Shown: positions 7,201 through 40,022 of the stretch, in pieces
Numbering within the stretch: position 1 is the stretch's first letter
How the letters are laid out: the number at the start of each line of letters is the position of its first letter
From: Candidatus Poribacteria bacterium
Lineage (GTDB): Bacteria > Poribacteria > WGA-4E > PCPOR2b
Reading direction: 5' to 3'
Assembly (NCBI GenBank): GCA_965215015.1
Contig: OZ244042.1
Location: forward strand, 2,137,557 to 2,201,556
Length of the DNA stretch: 64,000 nt
Notes under the pieces: model-generated
Seen by the model: the letters and a program-made list of their open reading frames with translations, nothing else
Told to the model about the DNA's origin: nothing
Databases searched by the model: none
Program-made: the position numbers and the translations under genes

Positions 7201-8226
7201 TTAGTTTTCCGAAGATTTAGAAGGGGGTGGACTCTCAGGGTGCCAAATTCCAATCTCTTGGTAATAGCGAATTGAACCGGGGTGAAACGGTGTACCGGTG
7301 TTCTTGACAACGTTTTTGGGGTTAATTGCCTTGCCCGCAGGGTGTGTCTTCACGACTTCGGCACGTTGTTCGTAGAGGATTTTGGTGAACTGGTAAACCG
7401 TCTCTGTGTCTACGTTCGCACCGGTAATCAGGTGCATGGCACCGACATTCATGCCGTGGAAGGAGTTGTCTTGACCCCGGTACGTTCCTGAAGGGATAAC
7501 CACAGCGTTAAAAAACGGGTAGTTTTCAAACAATCCCTGTTTCGCCGTGTCATCAAACGGGATGAAAAAGATGTTCTGGGACGCACTGGCTCGTGTAATC
7601 GATGCAGTTGGAACAGCCCCACCCAAGAACGCAGCGGCGGCGGAACCGTCAGCGAGCATATCGACGGCACCGGCTTGGGTGTTGTGGAGCGGGGTAAAAT
7701 CTTGGTAATTCACGCCATGTGCAGCCAAGATGGGCCCCAGAAAATACTCAAATCCCGCGCCTGCAGGACCAACCACCACACGCTTTCCCCTTAGATCCGA
7801 AAGCTTTTTTACGCCAGAGGATTGTGGGGTAATAAAAAGGGCAACATTGGGAGCAAGGGTCATCACTGTCCGAATCGGCTGCTCCCCTTTCCACGCCCCC
7901 TCCCCGCGAACTGCGAAATAAGAGATGGCAGCGTTGGCAAGGGCAAATTCTAACTCATCCTTGGCGAGACGTCGGATATTTTCCTGTGTGCCTTTGGTCG
8001 CTTCGGCGGAAACTTCCCAGTTCAGGTCACCTGTATGGTTGCTGACGACCTGCGCGATTGCACCACCGACGACGAAAAATGCTCCACCCGGTGGTGCCGT
8101 GCCCACGCTGAGAAATTGGCGTTTTTGCGCGCTGGCACTGAAGGCAGCTAAACTTAGTGAAGTGATAAGCCCGATGATCACAAGGTAGTTCCAGTTAATT
8201 CGTTTGGTTTTTTTTCTTGAATTCAC
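7201..8226 (-). CDS. TRAP transporter solute receptor, TAXI family
   Basis: The signal peptide plus the GTAPPGGAFFVVGGAIAQVV and LAPNVALFITP motifs are typical of the TAXI family. No TRAP permease gene lies adjacent. Confidence 0.65.
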   Translation of the reverse strand: MNSRKKTKRINWNYLVIIGLITSLSLAAFSASAQKRQFLSVGTAPPGGAFFVVGGAIAQVVSNHTGDLNWEVSAEATKGTQENIRRLAKDELEFALANAAISYFAVRGEGAWKGEQPIRTVMTLAPNVALFITPQSSGVKKLSDLRGKRVVVGPAGAGFEYFLGPILAAHGVNYQDFTPLHNTQAGAVDMLADGSAAAAFLGGAVPTASITRASASQNIFFIPFDDTAKQGLFENYPFFNAVVIPSGTYRGQDNSFHGMNVGAMHLITGANVDTETVYQFTKILYEQRAEVVKTHPAGKAINPKNVVKNTGTPFHPGSIRYYQEIGIWHPESPPPSKSSEN

Positions 8227-8620
8227 TTGTTCACTCCTTTAATAAGAATAAATTAACCCACGTTGCTAGGTTCCGTTGACATTTGACAAATTAAGTCAAT
8301 TCTGATGCACTTGAAGCAACTGTGGACTCCAGCTTTCTGTCAGTCTATATTGTGGTCAGGTACAAGCCCCCGATGGATCAGGCCTAAGAAGCCTACCCTA
8401 TATTTCGTCGATTCCTGTATATGAACACCTCTCAGGTTTGAGAGCGTTCGTTTTATCGCTGCGAATCCACGGGAGGACAGCGGCAATATTGTCAACCTTC
8501 TCTCTGAGAGAAGTGGTATCGGTTTGACGTACTCCCAGCCCTAAAGGCTTGGGATTCTTACCTTTAGGAGTAGAATCGCTCTATCTAACAGGCGTCAAAG
8601 AGAGCCATCCGAAGATGGGC

Positions 8621-8821
8621 TTACCCCTTCTCCTGAGAAGGTGGACGCCCCACCCTAAAGATATTGACCCCGGCGGCGCGATCTCCATCTAACTCTGTAT
8701 CGCAGTTCAGACACTGCCATGTCCTGTCCCGCAGATTCAACGATTGACAAACCCCCAAGCCGAACACGCCCAAAACGGCGGCAAATGTCTGCCGCCTTTG
8801 GTGAAGGACACCCCTTGTCAC
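8621..8821 (-). pseudogene. C-terminal remnant of an IS200/IS605-family TnpB (OrfB) transposase-associated nuclease
   Basis: ...CQSLNLRDRTWQCLNCDTELDGDRAAGVNIFRVG matches the TnpB zinc-finger and RuvC-III signature (C..C......DRDxNAAxNI..G). The N-terminal part is absent because the adjacent MR/MLE gene occupies that space. Confidence 0.45.
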
Positions 8822-8885
8822 GGCTTGTCCCCTGCCTGCCCCCCCACTTGCGAGGGGTTAGGTCGGAAGATTCTGATAAATTATG

Positions 8886-9962
8886 CTAGCCTATCCGATA
8901 CCGTTCAACCGCATCCATATCAAGCCTCACACCCAGACCCGGTTTTTCTGGGACCTTTGCCAGTCCATCCTTAATAATCAACGATTCAGCAAGAAGTGAA
9001 TGCTCTAGGAGTATGTAAAGTGAAACATGACTCAACGACGCATTGGGGAGAGCAGCAGCGAGGTGCACCATAAAGACCGCAGAGACACCTGTAAAACCCA
9101 TCTGGAGCCAAAATGGCTTATTCGCAGCAGAAGCAATATTGGCACATCGTAGAATGCCAGCGAGCCACCCACCCACCACATAATAATCATAGGCGGGCGA
9201 AGGGAGCGAAATTGTCGGCGGCGGTGAACCAAAATGGATTGCCAGCGGGAGACCGAGCTCTTTCTTCAGTCGTAGATACCCCTCAACGTCCTCTTGATTG
9301 ATTGGGGATTCCAGACACTTGACGTGGGGATATTCTTTCAACCGCCGACCGAAAGAAAGGGCGCGCTCCACGGTTCCAAAGGTGGTGTTGGCATCAATTG
9401 TAAGCTCATAATCTTCTGGTGCTATCTCCGCAATGGCTTGTACCTGTTCCACTACATCGGTGTGGGCGCGGCGTTTAAATTTATGCACTCGAAAACCGCC
9501 TTCTAGCGCAATCCTTACCTCCTGCTGCAACACCTCCGGCGGAAAACACTGCGACCAATAGGCAATTGGAGCACTCTGCTGACATGGACCAAACAGCCGT
9601 GCCATCGGCAGCCCGACCGCCTGGCCCATCAGGTCATAAAAAGCGATCTGAAGCGGTCCAGCGGTATCGTCCATGATGAATTCAAAGGGGCTTCTCCCTA
9701 GATACGTCTGGATTTTGTCTTCGGAAATACTCGCGCCTTCGCCGATTCCCACAAGCCCTTCGTCGGTGTGCACACGATAAATTGATGTTTCCACAGTGGG
9801 CACCGCTGATTCGCTCCACTGTCTTTCAAACTCACTTCTGTTCGCTTGAAATTCATCATCTGTTGCCCGGTTGCCGAGATTCCAACCTTTCCGAAGGGGT
9901 TCCCGTACACGCTCCAGATAAGGAATCTCCACAGTAATCTGCTCAATTTGGGTAATTTTCAC
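8886..9962 (-). CDS. Enolase-superfamily enzyme (mandelate racemase/muconate lactonizing enzyme family)
   Basis: 358-aa ORF with an N-terminal capping-domain motif (FYDLMGQAVGLPMARLFG) and a TIM-barrel portion. Confidence 0.65.
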   Translation of the reverse strand: MKITQIEQITVEIPYLERVREPLRKGWNLGNRATDDEFQANRSEFERQWSESAVPTVETSIYRVHTDEGLVGIGEGASISEDKIQTYLGRSPFEFIMDDTAGPLQIAFYDLMGQAVGLPMARLFGPCQQSAPIAYWSQCFPPEVLQQEVRIALEGGFRVHKFKRRAHTDVVEQVQAIAEIAPEDYELTIDANTTFGTVERALSFGRRLKEYPHVKCLESPINQEDVEGYLRLKKELGLPLAIHFGSPPPTISLPSPAYDYYVVGGWLAGILRCANIASAANKPFWLQMGFTGVSAVFMVHLAAALPNASLSHVSLYILLEHSLLAESLIIKDGLAKVPEKPGLGVRLDMDAVERYRIG

Positions 9963-10011
9963 GGTTTTTCCTTTCGCTTGGTCATTTTTATGGCCCCTGA
10001 TGAACCTTACA

Positions 10012-11160
10012 TCATGCGCGCTTATCTCTCCAATGCGTCAACTGTTCTTCATCCAACTCGACACCCAACCCAGGACCTTCGGGGACGCGAGCGACTTGGG
10101 GGCCGAGAGCAAGGGGCTCCCGCAGCAGATCTGCTTCATGATAAAGCGGCCCAATAATGTCTGCCGGGTAGGTTTCGCTGTCAATGGTGGGCATCGCAGC
10201 TGCGACATGCAGCATCGCAGCACTCCCAATCCCCAATTCCAGATTACTCCCGATACTACCAACTGCGCCGGCGGCTTTTGCAACATGCACAATTTCGAGG
10301 GTAGCACTCAGTCCACCGTGTTTGCCGGGGTACACGCTGAAGACATCAGCGGCACGCGCATTAGCCAGCAGCCACGCATCTGCAAGTGTGAAAAGGCTTT
10401 CATCCGCCATGATTGGGATATACGTCGCTTCCCTGAGTTGCGCGAGCGAGTCCGGGTTATCGGGAGAGATGGGTTGTTCCGCGAAAAGCATATCGTAAGG
10501 CTCAAGCTTGGGGAGCATACGACGGGCAGTATCCAAGCTCCAACCACAATTGACATCAATGCCAATGGGAACTGCTTGCCCAGCAATCTCTCGCACAGCT
10601 TTAACGCGCTGCAAATCTGTCACCGGATCGAGACCGACCTTAACTTTCAGGCAGCGTACCCCCCAATTGAGGAATCGCTCCGCCAGACTGACCGCTTGAG
10701 GAACATCGAACGCACCGACAACCATCTTAATTGGGATTTCGTCGCGGACCCGCCCGCCGAGCAGCTGATAAACGGGAACCCCCACCGCTTTTCCAGCTAA
10801 ATCCCACAACGCCATTTCTACTGCCGCCTTTGTGAACGGGTTGAGCTTGATCTCTCTATCCATGACAGCTCGCAGCAAATTAATCTGGGTGGGGTCAGCA
10901 CCGACCAACGCAGGGGCAATCAGTTCCTCAATGGCAGCGACGCAGCCGCGACTGGTTTCACCGCTCCAGCGAGGTGCTACTGTTGCTTCGCCCAGACCGA
11001 CTAAGTCCGTATCGGTATGGATGCGAACGATGACATAAGGTGAGTCGATATGTTCGCCATGGGCGGTCTTCGTTGTCAACCCTGCCTTCAGGGGAACTCG
11101 GACAGGGATCGGTTCAATCTGTGTAATGTGCATGGCAAGCCTCTGTTTGCTTAGGGGCAC
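10012..11160 (-). CDS. Enolase-superfamily enzyme (MR/MLE family)
   Basis: AVEMALWDLAGKAVGVPVYQLLGG and the barrel metal-ligand regions (IDVNCGW, FAEQP) are present. Confidence 0.8.
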   Translation of the reverse strand: MPLSKQRLAMHITQIEPIPVRVPLKAGLTTKTAHGEHIDSPYVIVRIHTDTDLVGLGEATVAPRWSGETSRGCVAAIEELIAPALVGADPTQINLLRAVMDREIKLNPFTKAAVEMALWDLAGKAVGVPVYQLLGGRVRDEIPIKMVVGAFDVPQAVSLAERFLNWGVRCLKVKVGLDPVTDLQRVKAVREIAGQAVPIGIDVNCGWSLDTARRMLPKLEPYDMLFAEQPISPDNPDSLAQLREATYIPIMADESLFTLADAWLLANARAADVFSVYPGKHGGLSATLEIVHVAKAAGAVGSIGSNLELGIGSAAMLHVAAAMPTIDSETYPADIIGPLYHEADLLREPLALGPQVARVPEGPGLGVELDEEQLTHWRDKRA

Positions 11161-11320
11161 AGTCGTAACCTAAGTTGCTGCCTATTGTAATCAGTCAGGA
11201 TTCTTATCTCGATCCGATAGTTGGTAGGTTAGACTTCCGAGCCCGACCTCGTCCCAATCCGCGTAGGTCGGGCAAAATGCCGGACCTATGGGAATAATGG
11301 CAACTTATGTCCAGTCGAAA

Positions 11321-12214
11321 TTAATCGAATTGGATGAACTGTTTCCAATTTTCATAGATAATGTTGTGAATTGCTTCCTTGGGAAACTGGGGGAAGTTGC
11401 TTCCCTCGACGATAGCATTTACCTTGTGCTGACCGGCTATCACCTGCTCCGGGGTAGCCGAGGGAAAATCGGAACCGAAAATCAACTTATGCTCCACCCC
11501 GTACTCAAGGGCTGTAATAAACGCTTGATAGTGCCGCCACGGACGATAGTGGAGGGCGGAGATGTCGACATACAGATTGGGATGTTTGCGAATCAGTACT
11601 ACGCAATCGGTCTCCCACGGATGCCCCATGTGTGCAATGATCATGCGAAGATTCGGACAAGCAACTGCGATATCCTCCAACATAATCGGGTTGGAGTATT
11701 TCAACGGTCCAGGGCGAACAAACGAGGTGCCCTGATGCCAGATCACCGGGATGTCTAATGCTTCGGCCTTTTTGAAAAGTGGGAGATGTTTCGTATCCTG
11801 CGGGTCGAAATTCTGGTAAATAGGTGCAACTTTGAGGCCGCGAAGTCCAAGTTCCTCAACGTTGTAAACAAGTTGATCCACACAGTCTTCATCGTTTGGA
11901 TCGACCGAACACCAGCCGATAAAGCGGTCTAAATGCTGGTTGACAAAGTCCGCAATCAGCTCCTGCGGGATATTGATGCCGCAGAAGGGAGCTTTCAGCC
12001 CAAACACAATAACCTTATCACAGTTCCTGGTTGCTTCAAGTAAGGTTTCAGGCGTAGAATCGAAGGCGTTCTTTTCCTCTTCCTCCTCATCAGCGAAGTA
12101 AACGTCCGGCGTAATCCGCATCTTTGCTTTCTTAGCAGCAAGCGCAAACTCGACAAATTCCTCGGAATAGTGATCGGGATACCAACCGAGATTCGTGTGA
12201 ATGTCAACAAGCAT
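11321..12214 (-). CDS. Amidohydrolase-2 family metal-dependent hydrolase
   Basis: The N-terminal MLVDIHTNLGWYP (H-x-H-like) region and a TIM-barrel hydrolase-like pattern (IIAHMGHPWETD) are present. Confidence 0.65.
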   Translation of the reverse strand: MLVDIHTNLGWYPDHYSEEFVEFALAAKKAKMRITPDVYFADEEEEEKNAFDSTPETLLEATRNCDKVIVFGLKAPFCGINIPQELIADFVNQHLDRFIGWCSVDPNDEDCVDQLVYNVEELGLRGLKVAPIYQNFDPQDTKHLPLFKKAEALDIPVIWHQGTSFVRPGPLKYSNPIMLEDIAVACPNLRMIIAHMGHPWETDCVVLIRKHPNLYVDISALHYRPWRHYQAFITALEYGVEHKLIFGSDFPSATPEQVIAGQHKVNAIVEGSNFPQFPKEAIHNIIYENWKQFIQFD

Positions 12215-12595
12215 TAAAAACTCCTTTGAAAAATCTTGTACTGTTTGTCCCGGATTCTTTTCGGCCTATCCTACATAAAACGACAATCAGCTGAATTGGA
12301 CGGGTATGCTACCACACCTCCATACGGAAGTCAATTCTTAAAATCGGGGTTCGCAGGGTAATTGCATGTAAATAGTTGGTGTATATGACTTTGGCATACG
12401 ATAATCGAAATGGACTCGTAGGCACAGATTTCCTAACCTGTAATCCCCACTCCGTAATTGCTATAACAGATATCGGGGGTCACTCTTCCCAGCGCGTTGA
12501 CAGGACGGACATTAACCGATTCAATGGAGGCGTACCTCTCGGACTAGCGGACATATTTGAGGGGAACCCACAATTCTGAATTATGTCTGGTTAAA

Positions 12596-14082
12596 TCACA
12601 AGCGCGCCACCCAGCGGCGTAATTGCAACTCCAGATCGTTCGCAACATCTGCATAATCTGCTAATATATTGTGCTGGTCATACGGATCTGACGCTCGACC
12701 GTACAGTTCGATGAGCGCATTGTCCTCCAGCATGACATGTAACCGCCACGCCGTGTCCTGAATAGACCATGAACGATCATGATGACCTGTGTAGGCATAG
12801 TCGCGCACACGGTCTGTCTCACCACGAATCAATGGCACTAGGCTATGGCCGTGCAAGGGAACCGTCTCCGACCCCAGTTGTATGTCCTGTGGGAAGAGCT
12901 CCCTGGTCGGACGCGGGCCTGTGCGAGCCAAAGTCAGGTTTTTACCAATGCCAAGAAAGTCTAAGAGGGTGGGAAACAGATCGGTCGGCTGAACAAGGGC
13001 GTCAATCACACCTTGATGCGAATTGGGAGACCCGAGGGCGTCCGGCAAACGAAACACCATCGGAATCCTCACCAACTCTTCATAGTTCCATGGTCTCGCC
13101 TTACGGATAATCCCATGCTCCCCAAACGGTTCCCCGTGATCGCTTAACCAGACGACCAGCGTATTTTCGAGCAATCCCAAATCTCGCACATAATCCACCA
13201 ACATCCCTGCCCACTTGTCAGTAAACGTGACCTCCCCCGCGTAGAGCGAGCGGACGCGGACGATTTCATCAGGAGTGAGGTAGTCGTGTTCGCTCTTGGC
13301 CTTCGGTTCCGGGGTCAAGGGGCTGCCGATATTCGTACAGGGCCCTGCCACCGGATCGATGATGTCTTGTCCAGAGTAGTCGGCGGCTTTGTACATAGAC
13401 CAGAACGGTTCCGGCGGATCCCACGGTTCATGTGGATCGAAGTAATCCACCCAGAGGAAGAGCTTATCTTTTTTGCCTTGCTGGTTCACCACGGCATCGA
13501 GCCAACGAATCGCTTCATGGGTCACACGCGGGGCAAAAAAATCCTCCTCGATCTGGCATGTGGAACGGTTTTTCATGTATTGCTCAAATCGAGGTGCCCA
13601 CAGTGCATCGGTATCATCTCCGCGTAAACGGTGCCAGATGTTTGTGTCAATGGGGCGGTCGTCGACAATCCACGGATCGTATTCCTGTCCACGCACAAAA
13701 ACCGTCGTATCAAAACCGCGTCCTATATTGTACACCGGTTTATGCCCATGGTACACATCAGTGACCAAGGCACTGGTGTATCCGTGGCTCCAAAGGACTT
13801 CGGCAAGTAAATAATCCGATTCCTGAAAAGGCTGCCAAGGGCGGAACGGAAAGCCGACGCGTCCCGTCCACCATGTGGTGCGAGTCGGTATCGTGGGCAA
13901 GCTCTCGGCGTAGCAGTGCGAAAAGAGAATGCCTTCCGCCGCGAGGCGTCGAGATGAGGGGTGGCCGTCTTCTTTATACCCTCGGCAGTACCATATTCGA
14001 CAGCGCGGATACCTCCCACGCCATCATAGCAACTACAATGGTCTGCCCGTAGTGAATCATTGACAATGCAAATGATGTTCAT
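12596..14082 (-). pseudogene. Sulfatase-like (alkaline phosphatase superfamily) gene with a 1-nt frameshift, and Thr at the formylglycine position
   Basis: The N-terminal fragment (13723-14082: MNIICIVNDSLRADHCSCYDG...TPHLD) and the main ORF (12596-13900) lie in different frames and join at about 13948, where ...TPHLD|RLAAEGILFSHCYAESLPTIPTRTTWWTGR... The canonical C-x-P-x-R-xxxx-TG motif reads T-I-P-T-R-TTWW-TG. Confidence 0.6.
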
Positions 14083-14485
14083 TTTTACCTCCTATATAAT
14101 TTTCCATCCTACCATATAACCCAAGTTGCTAGTAGTAGGCATACTCTGGCCCGATGGGATCGGGATTCAAAGCAATATACCGTAACCGATGTGCAAATAT
14201 GGAAACTTGACCTACGATCTAACTAGGTTCTGTTGACATGTCATCGCAACCGGATAATCGAGGACTGTGCAAAGACACACGGTCCTTTCGTAGGGGTTGG
14301 GGCTCCTAACCCGCTTTGGTCAATGGGCGAGGCGACCTCGCCCCTACGAGGACGGACAGTTTCACATAAATGTCAATACGCCCTAGCAATTTGGATTATT
14401 TTGTAGAAAGCAAGTTGTGGCACAGATTTCCTAATCTGCGGTTATGTCCCGATGCAAAATCGGAGGCGGCTGTGTGTCAATGTTA

Positions 14486-14680
14486 GGACTTACGTAGTCG
14501 AGTTTGTAGCAGTGTAATTCAACCCACGTCTTTAAGACAGTAGACACGCTCCGCGTGCCTGCTACTGTTCAGATGAACTGGAGTTGCCCGATTCATCGGG
14601 CGTCGTGACTCATATAGATACCAACACTGTCGCACAGCAGTGTCAGGTGTTGGCTTTGAACGTTCAACTGCGTAGGGCCT
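14486..14680. repeat. MITE-like repeat copy (ggacttacg...cgtagggcc) with an internal cccgattcatcgggcg hairpin
   Basis: It shares its termini and internal palindrome with the copies at 1878-2055 and elsewhere. Confidence 0.5.
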
Positions 14681-14809
14681 AACAATAAGGTAACCTTTGA
14701 AGCAATCGTAGAGCCTGCCCTCGATGAAATCGGGGTTAGCAAACCTACGCCACGATCGGATTGCGATTAGTTGTCGAGTGTGGAAACTCGACACTACAAG
14801 AGCAGTCCG

Positions 14810-15982
14810 TTATAGGTAGGGCGGCCACTGCCAGCCCCTTTTTGTAGCAAACCAGAGTTCTTCTGGGGCCGGTTTCGGCCCTGCCTGTAGCCTCCTGAGA
14901 ACATCTTCGTCGTATTGGATCCCGAAGCCAGGTTTCTTCGGAGGCGATATCTCGCCGTTTTTCGGAAGAATCGGGTCTATAACAGCCGAACCCTTGGGAG
15001 GCGGTGCGCTCCTGAAGCATTCAACGAACAGCCCGTTTGGCACAGCGGCCACCAACGATGCTGCGATCTCGGTGGTCGCATGGGGACACATAGGCAGACC
15101 GTATGAATCGGCAATGGCGGCGATCTTCACCCACTCGGTTACACCACCGCACCGGACGATGTCTGCTTGGACGAACTGCACGCCACCCCGTTCCATCAAC
15201 TCCCTGAACTCCCACTTCGTTGCGTGAGTTTCACCCAGGGCTATCGGGATGCTTATCTCTGCGGCAAGTTTGATGTGATTCTCTAACTCATCGGGAGGCA
15301 GCGGCTCCTCGAGCCAGTAAATGTTATACTTCTCCAGCTTCTCCGCCATTCGTATGGCTGTATTGAGACTCCAGCCAGAGTTGACGTCCAGTGTCAGGTC
15401 TACATGTGGGCCAATGGTCTCCCTCACCAATTTGACCCGCTCCACGTCTTCGTTCGGATTTCTCCTCCCGACCTTCATCTTCACCATCTTGAACCCAGCT
15501 TCGACGAACCCGGAATAGATGGCCACGAGTTCTTCCTCGCTGGCGAGGAGGCTGACGCTGCTTCCATAGGCTGCCACCGTGTCCCTGTGGGCACCAAGCA
15601 GTTTGTGAACCGGTTGGTTGAGAATCTTCCCTTTCAGGTCCCACAAGGCGATGTCTATCGCGCCAATTACCGATAGAACAACGCCCCTTCTGCCCCACCG
15701 TACACTACCCCAGTATAGCTTATCCCAGATCCGCTCGGTATCGAGGGGATCCTCACCGACAACTAGCGGTTTGAACATATGCTCAATGAGCAGCTTGTTC
15801 AATGAGACACCTTCGGGTCCAACCTGCGGTTCGCCAATCGAGGCAAATCCTGTCATGCCTTCGTCAGTGGATATTTGCACGAGCGAATTCGCGCGAATCT
15901 CGGGATTCACCACCGTGGCGTCAGTACTCTGCTTGACGTTGGCATACACGGGGTCGGATAGTTTTACATCTGTGACTTTCAC
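14810..15982 (-). CDS. Enolase-superfamily enzyme (MR/MLE family)
   Basis: AIDIALWDLKGKILNQPVHKLLGA and the barrel motifs (KMKVG, DVNSGW, LEEP) are present. Confidence 0.8.
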   Translation of the reverse strand: MKVTDVKLSDPVYANVKQSTDATVVNPEIRANSLVQISTDEGMTGFASIGEPQVGPEGVSLNKLLIEHMFKPLVVGEDPLDTERIWDKLYWGSVRWGRRGVVLSVIGAIDIALWDLKGKILNQPVHKLLGAHRDTVAAYGSSVSLLASEEELVAIYSGFVEAGFKMVKMKVGRRNPNEDVERVKLVRETIGPHVDLTLDVNSGWSLNTAIRMAEKLEKYNIYWLEEPLPPDELENHIKLAAEISIPIALGETHATKWEFRELMERGGVQFVQADIVRCGGVTEWVKIAAIADSYGLPMCPHATTEIAASLVAAVPNGLFVECFRSAPPPKGSAVIDPILPKNGEISPPKKPGFGIQYDEDVLRRLQAGPKPAPEELWFATKRGWQWPPYL

Positions 15983-16156: not shown

Positions 16157-17365
16157 CTATGCGCTTATCTGCGTCTCGTTCACCGCATACACCCTCTGGA
16201 ATATGTCTTCGTCAACTTCCAACCCAAGACCCAGCGCGTTGGCAACAGCGTACGAACCGTTCTCAAATGTAAAGTCGTCGGATTTGTATACGTTTGGTGC
16301 GCAGCGTTCATCTTCGATGGTAATGAACGATTCGGAAGCCGCTCCCCAGATCAGCGAGGCGCGAGTACCGAATACGCCGTTGTGGAAGCAGTGCGGCTGC
16401 GAGCTGACACCATAGCTGTCTAACTGTTCCTCGATTTCGTTCCAACGTGAAAAACCATGCCTGACGATGTCCGGTTGGTAACCATCCATCAAACCGTCTT
16501 CCATCATGTCCACGTACACATCGCTGATTGGATCGGGGTCGACTTCACCGCACACCAACAACGCCTCCGAACCAACCTTCTCTTGGATGTTTCTGATCGC
16601 CCGATAGTCGTCGACGTTTGGAGGGACCATCTCCTCAAGCCAGAACACGTCCGCAGGCTTTGTTTCTCGAATGAACATCTCCAGCAGGTCTAGGCGGTTC
16701 CTGTACCCGAAGTTACCGTCCGTCAATATCTTCGCGTCCGGCCCAATGGCTTCCCGCACGGCATAGATAACCTCGATATCGCGCCGAGCTCCCGCCTCTG
16801 GGTTCATCCAGCGACCGCACCGGCCGGTCTTGATTTTGAACTGCCTTCACCCAGCGTCAAACCCCTCTCTGGCTTGCTCAGCGACCAGTACTGCACCTTT
16901 TTCGGGGAAGTTCAGGTCGCTGAAGTAAAGGGTCGTGTCATAGGCATCTACGCGGTCACGCTTCTTGCCTCCAAGCAGCTCTAGGCAAGAGACACCCAGG
17001 GCCCTGCCAACCAAATCGTAGACGAGGATACTCATCCAGCCTTGGCCCCGGAACGCCCGTTTCGCCTCCTTTGTTGGGCCCGTGACACGTCCATTAGATA
17101 CATGCAGGAACTCATCTAATCGCCTACCAAGAAGGACCTCTTTGAGCAGATTCATCACATCTGCCACAGACCCCTGTCCCCCGATTGCTCCGAGGTGCCC
17201 CTTGTTGATTGCTAGGCCCTCAACTCCACCATCCGTGCGAGCACGGACAAGCCACTCGATTCCTATTGACCCGTGGCCCCAGTTGTAAGCATTCCTAGCA
17301 ATTTCATGGGGGTAACGGGCAGGAATCGGGGTAACACTGATTTCGGTAATACGTTGCGATGTCAT
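16157..17365 (-). pseudogene. Enolase-superfamily (MR/MLE) gene interrupted by a single in-frame TGA
   Basis: The capping-domain ORF (16847-17365, ...LVYDLVGRALGVSCLELLGG...) and the barrel ORF (16157-16807) are in the same frame. They are separated only by a TGA at about 16846-16849, giving ...REGFDAG*RQFKIKTGRCGRWMNPEAG..., where KIKTGR is the expected KxK barrel motif. Confidence 0.6.
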
Positions 17366-17691
17366 CTCTAATATACCTTACCTTTCATGACAAACCGACT
17401 GCTAAATAAGTGAGGAGGTGCTCGTAAAGTAGTAGGCCCGTTCCGTGTGTCGTAAACCCCACAACCGTTATGGCACATGGCTTGGCTAACACACAACTGC
17501 CATTAAAATTCTAACCATAACTTGAAGAACAAAGCACTGCCAACCCCGGGGGCATCTTGCCTCATCTACCGCCTGAGCTCCCTATCTGTATCCGTGCAAT
17601 CTGCTGCATCAGTTTAATCCGTGTCTCAGACAATAATTATGAGCATCCCTCATCTATATTTGACTCAGTTCTTTGTGTTCAGTATAATATA

Positions 17692-18210
17692 GGGCTTACG
17701 CAGTTGAACGTTCAAAGGAAACACCAGAAAAGGGCGCGCAATGTTTATGGTCGGTTGAGCCATAATTATAGCGCAAGAGTCATGGTATCCCCGGTGACTC
17801 ATCAAATACCAAGTGTATCACTCGACAGGGTTTGGTGAATTGAGCCGGGGGCTGTTGCACGACAGTGTTGGTATCTATACGACTCACGCCGCCCGATGAA
17901 TCGGCAACTTCAGTTTATTATCCGCCAGTAGTAGGCCCGCGGCGCGTGCTATCCCCCCCGTTTCTTGCCCCTCTGCTGGTGTGGGACCTAAGGGAGTAGC
18001 CCCGCCTCTCCCCACACTTCTTTTCCCCTCCGCTTGCGGGTGGGTTAGGGGGGGAGCCCTACCCCTGCTGGCGTGGGGACTAAGGGGGTGATACCCCAGC
18101 CGGTATTTAGCAGGAGGAAGGGGGGACAGCATACGCCGTATGCCGACTCCCTTAAAGACGCAAGTTGAATGGCGTTACGACAAAACTCAAGGGCGTAACT
18201 CCTAATAATA
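17692..18210. repeat. Composite dispersed element of about 520 bp (gggcttacgcagttgaacg...caagggcgtaactcctaa)
   Basis: It is homologous along most of its length to 18472-19045 and shares the cccgatgaatcgg core and the terminal motifs of the short MITE-like family. Confidence 0.5.
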
Positions 18211-18471
18211 ATTCAAGTTGCTACCTATAGCAAGAACAAATCAACCATTGCAAATTAGTATATCAGGAGATACTCTATATGTTTAAGTATCATTTCATCT
18301 CCTATTTGATGGGAATTTGCAAACAACGACAGCACTTCATTATACTCAACACTCATCAGTTTGTTGATATTTATCTTCGGTTATCAAAATGTCTCTGCCC
18401 AACAGTGGATCGCCCTATGCTATTTTTCAACAGAGCTGCCTCATCTGCCCAAATCCCGACAAGAAACTAGT

Positions 18472-19045
18472 TAGGATTACGCAGTTGAACGTTTAAACGA
18501 AACACCAAACACTACTGCGCTACTGTCCGGGTGGGTCGAGCCAGGATTATGGCGCAATGGTCCTGGTATCTTTCGGTGACTCATCAAATACTAGGTGTGT
18601 CACTCGACAGTGTTTGGTAAATTGAAAACACCAAGTATGTTGCGCGATAGAATATCAGACACTGTTATGCCCCATGATTGGCTCCATCCGCCCGGGAGAT
18701 TGTGCAACGGTGGCGGTTGTCCACTGTTGCATGACAGTGTTGGTATCTATACAACTTACGCCGCACAATGAATCGGACAACTCTAGTTCATCCGACAGTC
18801 GTATGCACGCTCCACGTCCCCTCCCCCTGCTAAATACCCGGTGGGTCGTCCCTCAGTTCCTAGCTCATTGAGCCTAGAGCGGTCTGATACCGTGTGAGTA
18901 TTCGGGACTGAGGGGGGTATCCTGAATACCCACACGGTTTCCCCTCTGCTTGCGGGGCGAAGGGACACCGTATGCCGACTCCCTTAAAGACGCGGGTTGA
19001 ATTGGGCGACTACAAACTCAAGTGCGTAACTCCTAACTTATAGCC
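18472..19045. repeat. Second copy of the composite element, about 570 bp
   Basis: It starts aggattacgcagttgaacg and ends caagtgcgtaactcctaac. It aligns with 17692-18210 by eye, for example ...gtgttggtatctataca/gac... and ...cgtatgccgactcccttaaagacgc... Confidence 0.5.
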
Positions 19046-19082
19046 TATCTATACCTACTTCACAGAAGGAGGACAAGCCAGA

Positions 19083-20534
19083 ATGTACAAAAAACAATAC
19101 CCAGGGCCCAATGCGGAGGTCGAGGAAGCCTTAGCGAGGGTTTGCACGGGGCCACATCAAACACGGCCCTTGGGGGCAAAGACGGGGGATCCAATCAGAC
19201 CATCGGCAATTCTTGAGACCATTCTGAGATCAGTCAAAGGAGAGTTGCCCGCAGATCAAGCGGTCTCAGAGGTTCAGATGGGCGCATTTTTCGCCGGGAT
19301 GACAATTCGGAAGGGTTTCCCCAAAAAAACGCGATGGAGCACAGCCGAGATCGAGGCTTTTGACAAATACCGCCCGGATTTGGAACGGTTGATGCCTCCA
19401 GAGCTTAGGTTTATCATGCAACCGGAGTTGGGACATACCGATACAAATCTCGATGAAACTGTCGTCGTAAAAGCCCTTGAAAAGATCTTGAGAGGCAATC
19501 ATTTGACCTACGATGAAACGCGCCAGATGGGAAAAGCTATCCTGAATGGAGATGTGAAGGGAGCACTGAAGGGAGCAGCACTCATCGGCCAGCGTATGAA
19601 CCTTGAGAGTTACGATGAGGTGCGCGGATATCTAGATGCAACTTTCAGTCGAGATCAGGTGCGCGAGGTTTCCATCGAGTCGCTGACGCATTTCGGCCAA
19701 CCCTTCGATGGTGCGACGCGGTACTTTAGACCGACGCTGTTTATCGCAGCCGTGAGAGCTGCGCTAGGCGAGCCATCGGTGCTGCACGGTGTGGATGAGA
19801 TGCCTCCGAAAAGCGGAATCACAGAAGAGCAGCAGCTGCAGGTGCTCGGTGCTCGCACAAATCTCTCCCTTGACGAAGCGGCAAATCTAATCGAAGATCC
19901 AGAGGTTGGGTTTGCTTACGTGAGTCAGCGGGAATATGCGCCCGGTGCCTACAACATCCGGGAATTACGGGTTCATATCAAAAAGCGTCCCCCTTGGGCA
20001 GCGACGGAGAAAGCGCAGCAACTGTTCACTGCTTCCGGTGCAAACTACATGGTGATTGGATACTATCACCCCGGTTATGAAACGCCATTGCTGCAGTTGA
20101 TAGGGGAGCGCGGTTTCCGTGCAGGGCTTGTGGTCAAAGGTGAGGAGGGAACAAGCCACTACGCCTTGCGATTGGGGAATCCTTCGACAGAAAAGCGACA
20201 AGCCATAAATTATTCTCAAGGATTCCGCCGTATCGGTGAGCGACGTGAGGATTTTTCGCTAGACATAGACCCGTCGGAGTTCGGATTCAATTACGAGAAA
20301 AACCCGCGCCTAGAAACGATAAATCCCGAAGCGTTTGCATCGGTAGGAATGGAGGCATTATCCGGTCAGAAAGGGCAGATATATGACAGGTTGGTGCTCA
20401 ATACAGCGATGACCGATTACCTGTTGGGCATCTGCTCGGATCCACACGAGGCCCTCGAACGGACCAAGGAAGCGATTGATAGCGGCCGTGCCCTAGCGCA
20501 TCTGAAAACATACATCGCGAAAAGCCAACTCTGA
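19083..20534 (+). CDS. Divergent anthranilate phosphoribosyltransferase-like (glycosyltransferase family 3-like) protein
   Basis: The N-terminus (ILETILRSVKGELPADQAVSEVQMGAFFAGMTIRKGF) resembles the TrpD/TrpD2 helical domain. The remainder is divergent. A GAAGGAGG box precedes the ATG. Confidence 0.4.
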   Translation: MYKKQYPGPNAEVEEALARVCTGPHQTRPLGAKTGDPIRPSAILETILRSVKGELPADQAVSEVQMGAFFAGMTIRKGFPKKTRWSTAEIEAFDKYRPDLERLMPPELRFIMQPELGHTDTNLDETVVVKALEKILRGNHLTYDETRQMGKAILNGDVKGALKGAALIGQRMNLESYDEVRGYLDATFSRDQVREVSIESLTHFGQPFDGATRYFRPTLFIAAVRAALGEPSVLHGVDEMPPKSGITEEQQLQVLGARTNLSLDEAANLIEDPEVGFAYVSQREYAPGAYNIRELRVHIKKRPPWAATEKAQQLFTASGANYMVIGYYHPGYETPLLQLIGERGFRAGLVVKGEEGTSHYALRLGNPSTEKRQAINYSQGFRRIGERREDFSLDIDPSEFGFNYEKNPRLETINPEAFASVGMEALSGQKGQIYDRLVLNTAMTDYLLGICSDPHEALERTKEAIDSGRALAHLKTYIAKSQL

Positions 20535-31246: not shown

Positions 31247-31409
31247 AGGAACTTACGCGGTTCAACCCTCAAAGCCGTGTCGAGCGGCGATAAATCGCCG
31301 AACGACACCTTTGCCAACGCCCGATGAATCGGGCAACTACAGCAAGAGCGCCATTAAGGAATCCGTAGTGAACACCGATTGTTGTTCACTGCGGAAGTGC
31401 GTAACTCCT
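31247..31409. repeat. MITE-like repeat copy (ggaacttacgc...gtgcgtaactcc)
   Basis: It contains the gcgataaatcgccg and cccgatgaatcgggc palindromes. The copy at 33646-33759 is its partial reverse complement. Confidence 0.5.
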
Positions 31410-33645: not shown

Positions 33646-33759
33646 ACTTCAGTATGGATTCTCTGCTGTAGTTGCCCGATTCATCGGGCGTTGTCAATGG
33701 TGTCGTTCAGCGATTTATCGCCGCTTGACACGGCTTTGAGGGTTGAACCGCGTAAGTCC
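33646..33759. repeat. MITE-like repeat copy in reverse orientation
   Basis: ggagttacgca...cgcgtaagtcc. Internally it is the reverse complement of the 31247-31409 copy. Confidence 0.5.
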
Positions 33760-39593: not shown

Positions 39594-40022
39594 TTTTCAT
39601 CGAATACACGAAAATATCTTTCCTTCATTTTCTTAATTTCTGGGGCAATTCCACTCTCATAACTTAGATTGACAGATGCAAACTAAAACCGATACATTTG
39701 CCAATTCGTTAGAATTGTATCAATTGTTCTTGTTCTTATTGTGCCATATCTTCACAAAATTCGGCAAGAATTATCCGTTTGAAGCTCGATTGATAATTTT
39801 CAAAAAAAAACTAGGTTCTGTTGACATTCGATAAATTGAGCCGATCTCCGTGCTTATGAGCACCCCTCCTAGAACATTGCGCTATGGAATACCAGATACT
39901 GCTGAGCCACACGATTGGATCCATCCGCCCGGAACATTGCGTTATAGCGAAATTATATGAAAAAATCATTGAAAAACTATTGACAGATTATTAATAATCG
40001 TTTATGGTATTAACCCCTATCG

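Follow-up and report, generated by a model that had tools for sequence, protein, structure and literature searches.

The window analysed, a stretch of 64,000 nucleotides (nt) from contig OZ244042.1 of a Candidatus Poribacteria bacterium, contains a minus-strand sulfatase-like gene (14082..12596) that encodes threonine, Thr64, at the position of the formylglycine precursor. This threonine is the hallmark of a large clade under purifying selection (ratio of non-synonymous to synonymous substitution rates, dN/dS, 0.07–0.12). The gene is probably the orthologue, in Candidatus Poribacteria, of an enzyme that is cytoplasmic and has the fold of S1 sulfatases and phosphonate monoester hydrolases (PMHs), in which Thr64 would be a direct nucleophile, and its reading frame is broken by the loss of one C. 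The new part is the Thr-type clade, a variant of sulfatase-fold enzymes; the interest comes from the clade and not from the lesion.

Threonine at the formylglycine position

The motif of the encoded protein is L62-P63-T64-I65-P66-T67-R68, in extended form L-P-T64-I-P-T-R-x3-W-T-G-R. In single-sequence phmmer and profile hidden Markov model (HMM) alignments alike, T64 lines up with the Cys/Ser (formylglycine) position of solved sulfatases, the aligned matches being ...SSTPAR...TGQ in 7oz8 and ...PASPAR...TG in the PMH 4uph. In the same two kinds of alignment D9 falls on the first metal-ligand Asp. H218 is aligned to the His of P-H-x-P, D315-H316 to the D-[NH] metal ligands and K328 to the conserved Lys. 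No Cys lies nearby in register with the formylglycine position in the alignments to solved sulfatases, so the motif is not mis-registered. The first-pass annotation, made from the sequence alone, had reported Thr at the C/S-x-P-x-R position and had named a mis-registered motif as the test of this observation; the two alignments agree and the observation stands. Its further statement that the gene does not encode a canonical formylglycine sulfatase is also correct, the precursor position being occupied by Thr and not by Cys/Ser.

The reconstructed protein matches the Pfam family Sulfatase (PF00884, E = 3.6e-33) and also SGSH_C. The match to PF01663 (NPP) is under the gathering score, and no NCBIfam model reached its cut-off for this protein. 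The two metal-ligand elements of S1 sulfatases, the N-terminal Asp and D-[NHQ]-G, correspond in alignment to D9 and D315-H316-G317, which are invariant. The sulfate-binding G-K-x-H signature is missing: the strand ends in T-D109-x-Y-H112, and the canonical paralogue P0234 has F-G-K-R-H. D109 was placed on the Lys of G-K-x-H in two of three HMM alignments.

Extent and conservation of the Thr-type clade

The clade is described by the motif [LM]-P-T-x-P-x-R-x3-[WFLM]-T-G. Among the query and the best 120 of 3613 hits, T64 and R68 are present in all 121 sequences and P66 in 120 of the 121. Thr was also found in 90 of 97 tblastn matches across 82 loci, the rest being canonical C-x-P-S-R paralogues with 21–26% identity; 80 of these loci came from a scan of species-representative genomes, in which at least 595 loci were found. 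Clustering at 50% identity gave at least 312 representative clusters at E ≤ 1e-30, and 126 of the 135 representatives compared at this identity level carry Thr. D9, R68, H218, D315, H316 and K328 vary little or not at all among bacterial and archaeal members, even at identities as low as about 30%. D109, H112, H218 and H323 are conserved and are candidate extra metal ligands. Since Thr is invariant throughout the clade, it is not a mutation of the gene in the window.

The bacterial hosts are Poribacteria, Abditibacteriales, Latescibacterota, Terriglobia, Chloroflexota, Planctomycetota, Bacillota, Armatimonadota, Desulfobacterales and Thermotogae; the archaeal hosts are Bathyarchaeia, Thermoprotei, Hadarchaeota, Brockarchaeota and Promethearchaeota.

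A Cys-type sister group with the motif [FY]-P-C-M-P-A-R-R-D comprises eight representatives, among them P0161, P0166, P0169, P0222, P0223, P0232 and P0238. It has three signatures in common with the Thr clade, namely T-D109-H-x-H112, F-D-P-H-E-P-[WF]-D-P-P and D-H-G..G-[DE]-H..G-K, and in both groups Asp replaces the Lys of the canonical G-K-x-H. The sharing of these signatures indicates that the Thr clade is nested among formylglycine-type enzymes.

More distant Thr-type paralogues adjoin family members in six loci (L008, 6643–7881; L012, 14368–15288; L013, 15829–17013; L051, 4482–5726; L054, 11471–12865; L059, 1394–2761). The motifs of distant paralogues vary (T-H-P-S-F, T-L-Q-T-R, T-V-P-F-R and [FS]-F-P-T-[IV]-P-[CN]-R), so the core clade is only part of a deeper and more varied Thr-type group.

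Databases name the proteins of the clade ‘sulfatase’ or ‘arylsulfatase A-like’. No description of a T-x-P-x-R sulfatase-like clade was found in the literature, the coverage of which was incomplete, so this is absence of evidence; the clade is apparently unstudied.

Fold, location and similarity to known enzymes

The clade contains no solved structure, and the highest identity to one is about 26–28%. The values listed in the comparison of folds were as follows:

S1 sulfatases and PMHs: 30–36
PbgA, LtaS and EptC: 26–32
PafA and NPP: 20–24
Alkaline phosphatases: about 17

With the metal-ligand Asp at residue 9, 109 of 120 members have no signal peptide or membrane anchor and are thus cytoplasmic.

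The S1 sulfatases (SulfAtlas S1; BT1918 of S1_46, 7oz8; Pseudomonas aeruginosa AtsA, 1hdh) share the PF00884 fold with the clade. However, they possess a Cys/Ser formylglycine precursor, where the clade has Thr, and a G-K-x-H signature, where the clade has T-D-x-Y/W-H with the Lys changed to Asp109. Unlike S1 sulfatases, the clade lacks a signal peptide, and no gene of a formylglycine-generating enzyme (FGE) or an anaerobic sulfatase-maturating enzyme (anSME) was seen in the window or in the neighbourhoods of family members. The S1 sulfatases are defined in SulfAtlas by [CS]-x-P-x-R (PMC5066984); with Thr at the C/S position, the clade therefore lies outside this definition. PMHs and related arylsulfatases (RlPMH, 2vqr; BcPMH, 2w8s; SpPMH, 4upk; SpAS, 4upl) are only about 20–28% identical to the clade, and the formylglycine of PMHs is made from Cys, whereas the clade has Thr.

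The phosphoglycerol and phosphoethanolamine transferases LtaS, EptA/MCR-1 and EptC contain PF00884, as does the clade. LtaS and EptA have an N-terminal multi-pass membrane domain and extracytoplasmic catalysis, whereas the clade protein begins at the catalytic domain. In LtaS, EptA/MCR-1 and EptC a metal-bound Thr is the proven nucleophile and forms a covalent phospho-intermediate, which sets a precedent in mechanism for Thr in a domain of the sulfatase type; judging from the alignment, the Thr of the clade lies at the equivalent position. The NPP enzymes (PF01663) are also members of the alkaline phosphatase superfamily with a Thr nucleophile, set in a bimetallo site of six Asp/His ligands. 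The window protein carries Thr, but it was not assigned to PF01663 or to an NPP-like fold.

Proposed chemistry

The invariant residues D9, T64, D315 and H316 appear to represent the sulfatase metal site with Thr in place of formylglycine. By analogy with LtaS, EptA and NPP, we infer that the clade is catalytically active, with the metal-activated hydroxyl of Thr64 as the direct nucleophile. The Thr alkoxide would attack a phosphoryl or sulfuryl centre, giving a covalent intermediate, and R68, H218 and K328 would keep the anion-binding pocket; with the hydroxyl itself as nucleophile, no maturation by FGE or anSME would be needed. The predicted reaction, in the cytoplasm, is the cleavage or transfer of a phospho-ester group (a sulfo-ester group being less likely), with a small sugar-derived molecule as substrate. 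In Poribacteria, its role would lie within a sugar-acid catabolic cluster that includes MR_MLE dehydratase-like, Amidohydro_2 lactonase-like and solute-binding-protein genes.

One point against this chemistry comes from arylsulfatase A, in which Ser in place of formylglycine leaves the sulfo-enzyme trapped at a dead end; by analogy, a one-metal sulfatase site with Thr may fail to turn over sulfate esters. The trapping in the Ser-substituted enzyme makes hydrolysis or transfer of a phospho-ester more likely than hydrolysis of a sulfate ester. D109, H112 and H323, all conserved, are candidates for a second metal site. Clustering of the neighbours of 80 loci revealed no family-wide conserved neighbour pointing to a substrate. 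The immediate neighbours (Pfam, n = 124) are a mix of sugar and phospho-ester genes, in keeping with the proposed chemistry, with AP_endonuc_2 found six times, GDPD, HAD and solute-binding proteins three times each and PfkB twice.

The clade is unlikely to consist of catalytically dead pseudo-enzymes with a binding or regulatory function. R68, H218, K328 and the metal ligands D9, D315 and H316 are near-invariant down to about 30% identity, and the Thr is invariant and does not drift as a dispensable residue would. The first-pass annotation had allowed that the protein may be inactive. For the family this is improbable as a consequence of Thr, given its invariance and the low dN/dS; for the copy in the window the suggestion holds by another route, through the frameshift, if that is real.

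Still less probable is an oxidation of the clade Thr to a keto residue (2-amino-3-oxobutyrate) by an anSME-like radical S-adenosylmethionine (radical-SAM) enzyme, the hydrate of the ketone then acting like formylglycine. anSMEs can oxidise threonyl peptides in vitro. The clade has kept the complete maturation-type motif T-x-P-x-R-x3-x-T-G, and the Cys-type sister group ([FY]PCMPARRD) shares the remaining active site, both of which are in keeping with such a modification. However, P66 and R68 serve structure and catalysis in mature sulfatases, and no maturase is required to explain why they were kept. Nor is a radical-SAM/SPASM maturase or FGE gene present in the window or enriched beside family members: FGE and anSME genes are missing among the window open reading frames (ORFs) of at least 150 aa, FGE is not among the 25 most frequent neighbour families listed for the 124 immediate neighbours, and radical-SAM proteins account for only two of these 124. 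A linked maturase was rejected, as the clustering of neighbours at 80 loci and the Pfam search of the 124 neighbours gave only MoaA (an immediate neighbour) and TYW1 as radical-SAM proteins near family genes. According to Barbeyron et al. 2016 (PMC5066984), oxidised Thr would be a ketone; Thr is mentioned there only for Pfam seed sequences of the TxNxE type.

Returning to the direct Thr nucleophile, it is tentatively proposed that in a maturation-free clade ranging from Poribacteria to Bathyarchaeia an encoded Thr has replaced formylglycine, which would be a new combination of nucleophile and active site on the S1 sulfatase/PMH fold. Genome annotation counts the proteins of the clade as ‘sulfatases’. 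Sulfatase counts have served as an argument that sponge symbionts, Poribacteria among them, degrade sulfated host glycans; these counts are inflated if hydrolysis of sulfate esters is not an activity of the Thr-type clade. Maturation limits the heterologous expression of sulfatases in biotechnology, and if the clade does hydrolyse sulfate esters, it would offer a sulfatase independent of FGE and anSME, which would be useful in this field. A natural Cys/Thr switch on a conserved sulfatase active site also bears on the choice of nucleophile and on promiscuity in the alkaline phosphatase superfamily, and the Cys-type sister group can be regarded as a natural experiment on the gain or loss of formylglycine.

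The broken frame of the window copy

The gene in the window is divided into two ORFs that lie in different frames and overlap, as the first-pass annotation had described and the ORF list confirms. Its features are as follows:

13723..14082, minus strand: ORF 1, 119 aa, starting with ATG
12596..13900, minus strand: ORF 2, 434 aa
14088..14093, minus strand: ribosome-binding site AGGAGG, 5 nt upstream of the ATG, read from the sequence
13948..14082, minus strand: N-terminal coding segment, codons 1–45 (MNIICIVND9SLRAD...TPHLD), in the frame of the ATG at 14082..14080
13947..13948, minus strand: frameshift site, one nt missing between 13948 and 13947, located by alignment to orthologues
12596..13947, minus strand: rest of the gene, codons 46–495 and the stop, in the other frame, located by tblastn and conservation

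Codons 1–45 contain the first metal-ligand motif, with the D9 codon at 14058..14056. Other codons are T64 (ACG) at 13894..13892, R68 at 13882..13880, D109 at 13759..13757, H218 at 13432..13430, D315-H316 at 13141..13136 and K328 at 13102..13100.

Four intact orthologues of 493–495 aa, each encoded in one ORF, are found on other Candidatus Poribacteria contigs: L001, a syntenic TARA metagenome scaffold, and L003, L004 and L005, which are Candidatus Poribacteria metagenome-assembled genomes (MAGs). Their nucleotide identity to the window gene is 83–87%. The nearest database protein, P0001 (89% identical, 495 aa, single frame), is encoded on L001, which is collinear with the window over 7.2–20.5 kb. 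In the 1488-column alignment with the L001 gene, the only gap column is at the break (window GA-CGCCTC, L001 GACCGACTC). The same gap appears against L003, L004 and L005, which read GA[CT] [CA]GA CT[CT] at the break; the other gap there is an in-frame 6-nt indel elsewhere. The missing nt is a C, the first base of the Arg codon CGx/AGA: in the window GAC is directly followed by GCC, and relatives have GAC CGx. The addition of one C after GAC (13950..13948) gives a 495-aa ORF in which ...KTATPHLD is continued by RLAAEGILFSHCYAESLPTIPTR.... With the L001 protein as a tblastn query, residues 1–45 match 14082..13948 in frame −2, and residues 33–495 match 13987..12599 in frame −1, gap-free. The split into two ORFs is thus due to one C missing between 13948 and 13947. 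A single missing C near 13948 had been suggested at first pass, and the gap column against four orthologues agrees with it, join and coordinates included.

The comparison shows that the window belongs to a Poribacteria species other than those of the four orthologues. The frameshift is not conserved among relatives and is peculiar to the window copy, the frame of which is disrupted relative to intact orthologues under selection, as in a pseudogene. Pairwise dN/dS is 0.10–0.12 for the window gene and 0.07–0.09 among the four orthologues, and 124 of the 189 substitutions relative to L001 are at codon position 3. All strictly invariant family residues are unchanged in the window copy. Across the 450 codons downstream of the break there is no additional stop or indel, which indicates that the lesion is recent; it is either very recent or artificial.

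A real lesion is the likelier case. One C would have been lost after codon 45, most likely in a very recent inactivating mutation. Translated unchanged, the gene would yield 119 aa, of which only the first 45 are in the correct frame, and the product of the 434-aa ORF would be devoid of the D9 metal-ligand strand; the copy should therefore be non-functional. The other ORFs of at least 150 aa scanned in the window are uninterrupted, including rpoB (1706 aa), rpoC (1414 aa), smc, the class II ribonucleotide reductase gene and fusA. Pfam matches were obtained for 34 of the 41 scanned ORFs, the domains being matched over their length. The intactness of these ORFs argues against a generally error-ridden assembly. 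The cluster has a second lesion, a TGG to TGA change in a neighbouring MR_MLE-like gene (16157..17365), which is a substitution and not an indel. L004 is without an equivalent of that gene, so accessory genes of the cluster truly turn over.

One observation counts against a real lesion: the gene has no second lesion, its ribosome-binding site and start are intact, and an artefact would look alike. The dN of the window branch is about twice that of the L001 and L005 branches (derived from pairwise values), but the excess of lineage-unique amino-acid changes on this branch is common to all cluster genes and hence gives no specific sign of decay. An old pseudogene as the cause of the raised dN was rejected for the same reason, the whole cluster showing an equal excess.

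An assembly or sequencing artefact, with the gene intact in the organism and the missing C, perhaps also the TGA of the neighbour, being consensus errors (CC read as C), is a doubtful but not negligible explanation. It fits a single lesion located in a CC dinucleotide in a gene that is otherwise free of stops and indels, with its translation start signals and all family-invariant residues kept; in addition, two of the three Candidatus Poribacteria relatives resemble long-read MAGs, with contigs up to 6.8 Mb. However, about 50 ORFs of at least 150 aa over about 58 kb, including more than 9 kb of rpoBC, gave no other broken gene, and the other lesion in the cluster, in a gene wholly lost in a relative, arose by substitution to a stop and does not have the form of a homopolymer indel.

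Programmed −1 ribosomal frameshifting or transcriptional slippage yielding a full-length protein can be dismissed almost with certainty: the needed shift is indeed −1 and the frames overlap by about 300 nt, but 13940–14023 contains no X XXY YYZ slippery heptamer and no long homopolymer, and the shift is not conserved, the four orthologues and every recovered family protein spanning the site being encoded in one frame. The frameshift as such is ordinary; its interest is limited to what it indicates about gene turnover or assembly quality.

Gene neighbourhood

The gene is part of a Poribacteria cluster that is collinear with L001, L003 and L005. All genes listed are on the minus strand and were assigned by Pfam; the in-frame stop codon of the last was identified by comparison with relatives:

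7201..15982, minus strand: syntenic Poribacteria gene cluster
7201–8226, minus strand: NMT1_3 solute-binding protein
8886–9962, minus strand: MR_MLE enolase-superfamily gene, intact
10012–11160, minus strand: MR_MLE enolase-superfamily gene, intact
11321–12214, minus strand: Amidohydro_2 gene
14810–15982, minus strand: MR_MLE enolase-superfamily gene, intact
16157..17365, minus strand: MR_MLE-like gene with an in-frame TGA at 16849..16847, which is TGG (Trp) in L001, L003 and L005

An alternative genetic code was rejected as an explanation of this TGA, as the long genes of the window are open under table 11. The Poribacteria cluster holds three to five MR_MLE genes together with the Amidohydro_2 and NMT1_3 genes; a luciferase-like monooxygenase, a Glycos_transf_3 protein and a PhyH dioxygenase are encoded nearby. 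L001, L003 and L005 contain an extra MR_MLE gene (7382–8530 in L001) between the sulfatase-like and Amidohydro_2 genes, with 95–96% amino-acid identity among the three. It is missing in the window (12215–12595) and in L004. Its absence was considered as a third lesion of decay and rejected, because L004 also lacks it and yet has an intact sulfatase-like gene.

A 20-nt direct repeat, GGCACAGATTTCCTAA[C/T]CTG, is located at 12421–12440 and 14419–14438. The first copy precedes the Amidohydro_2 start by about 210 nt, and the second precedes the sulfatase-like start by about 340 nt. The repeat occurs nowhere else in the window, and two hits were never obtained in 100 shuffles. The repeat, which is absent from the orthologous loci L001, L003, L004 and L005, may be an operator or an insertion remnant.

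Other features of the window

A dispersed intergenic repeat family of about 100 nt, with 80–96% identity between copies, resembles repetitive extragenic palindromic (REP) or miniature inverted-repeat transposable (MITE) elements. An Rfam scan of the window gave no match. The copies are located at:

14545–14682, 17690–17728, 17852–17948, 18478–18526 and 18722–18810
31317–31342, 33666–33694, 1942–1966 and 2028–2057

Two regions of about 1.4–1.7 kb each, 17365–19083 and 27166–28542, have no ORF of at least 150 aa and contain only short ORFs (50–115 aa). Copies of the dispersed repeat lie in the first of them, which exceeds its counterpart spacer in L001 by about 1.3 kb.

The part of the window at 40004–63833 is core chromosome with intact long ORFs, among which are nrdR, a class II ribonucleotide reductase, a TauE/SafE exporter, fusA, smc, a queG-like gene, rpoB and rpoC. 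The rpoB gene product, at 1706 aa, is unusually long.
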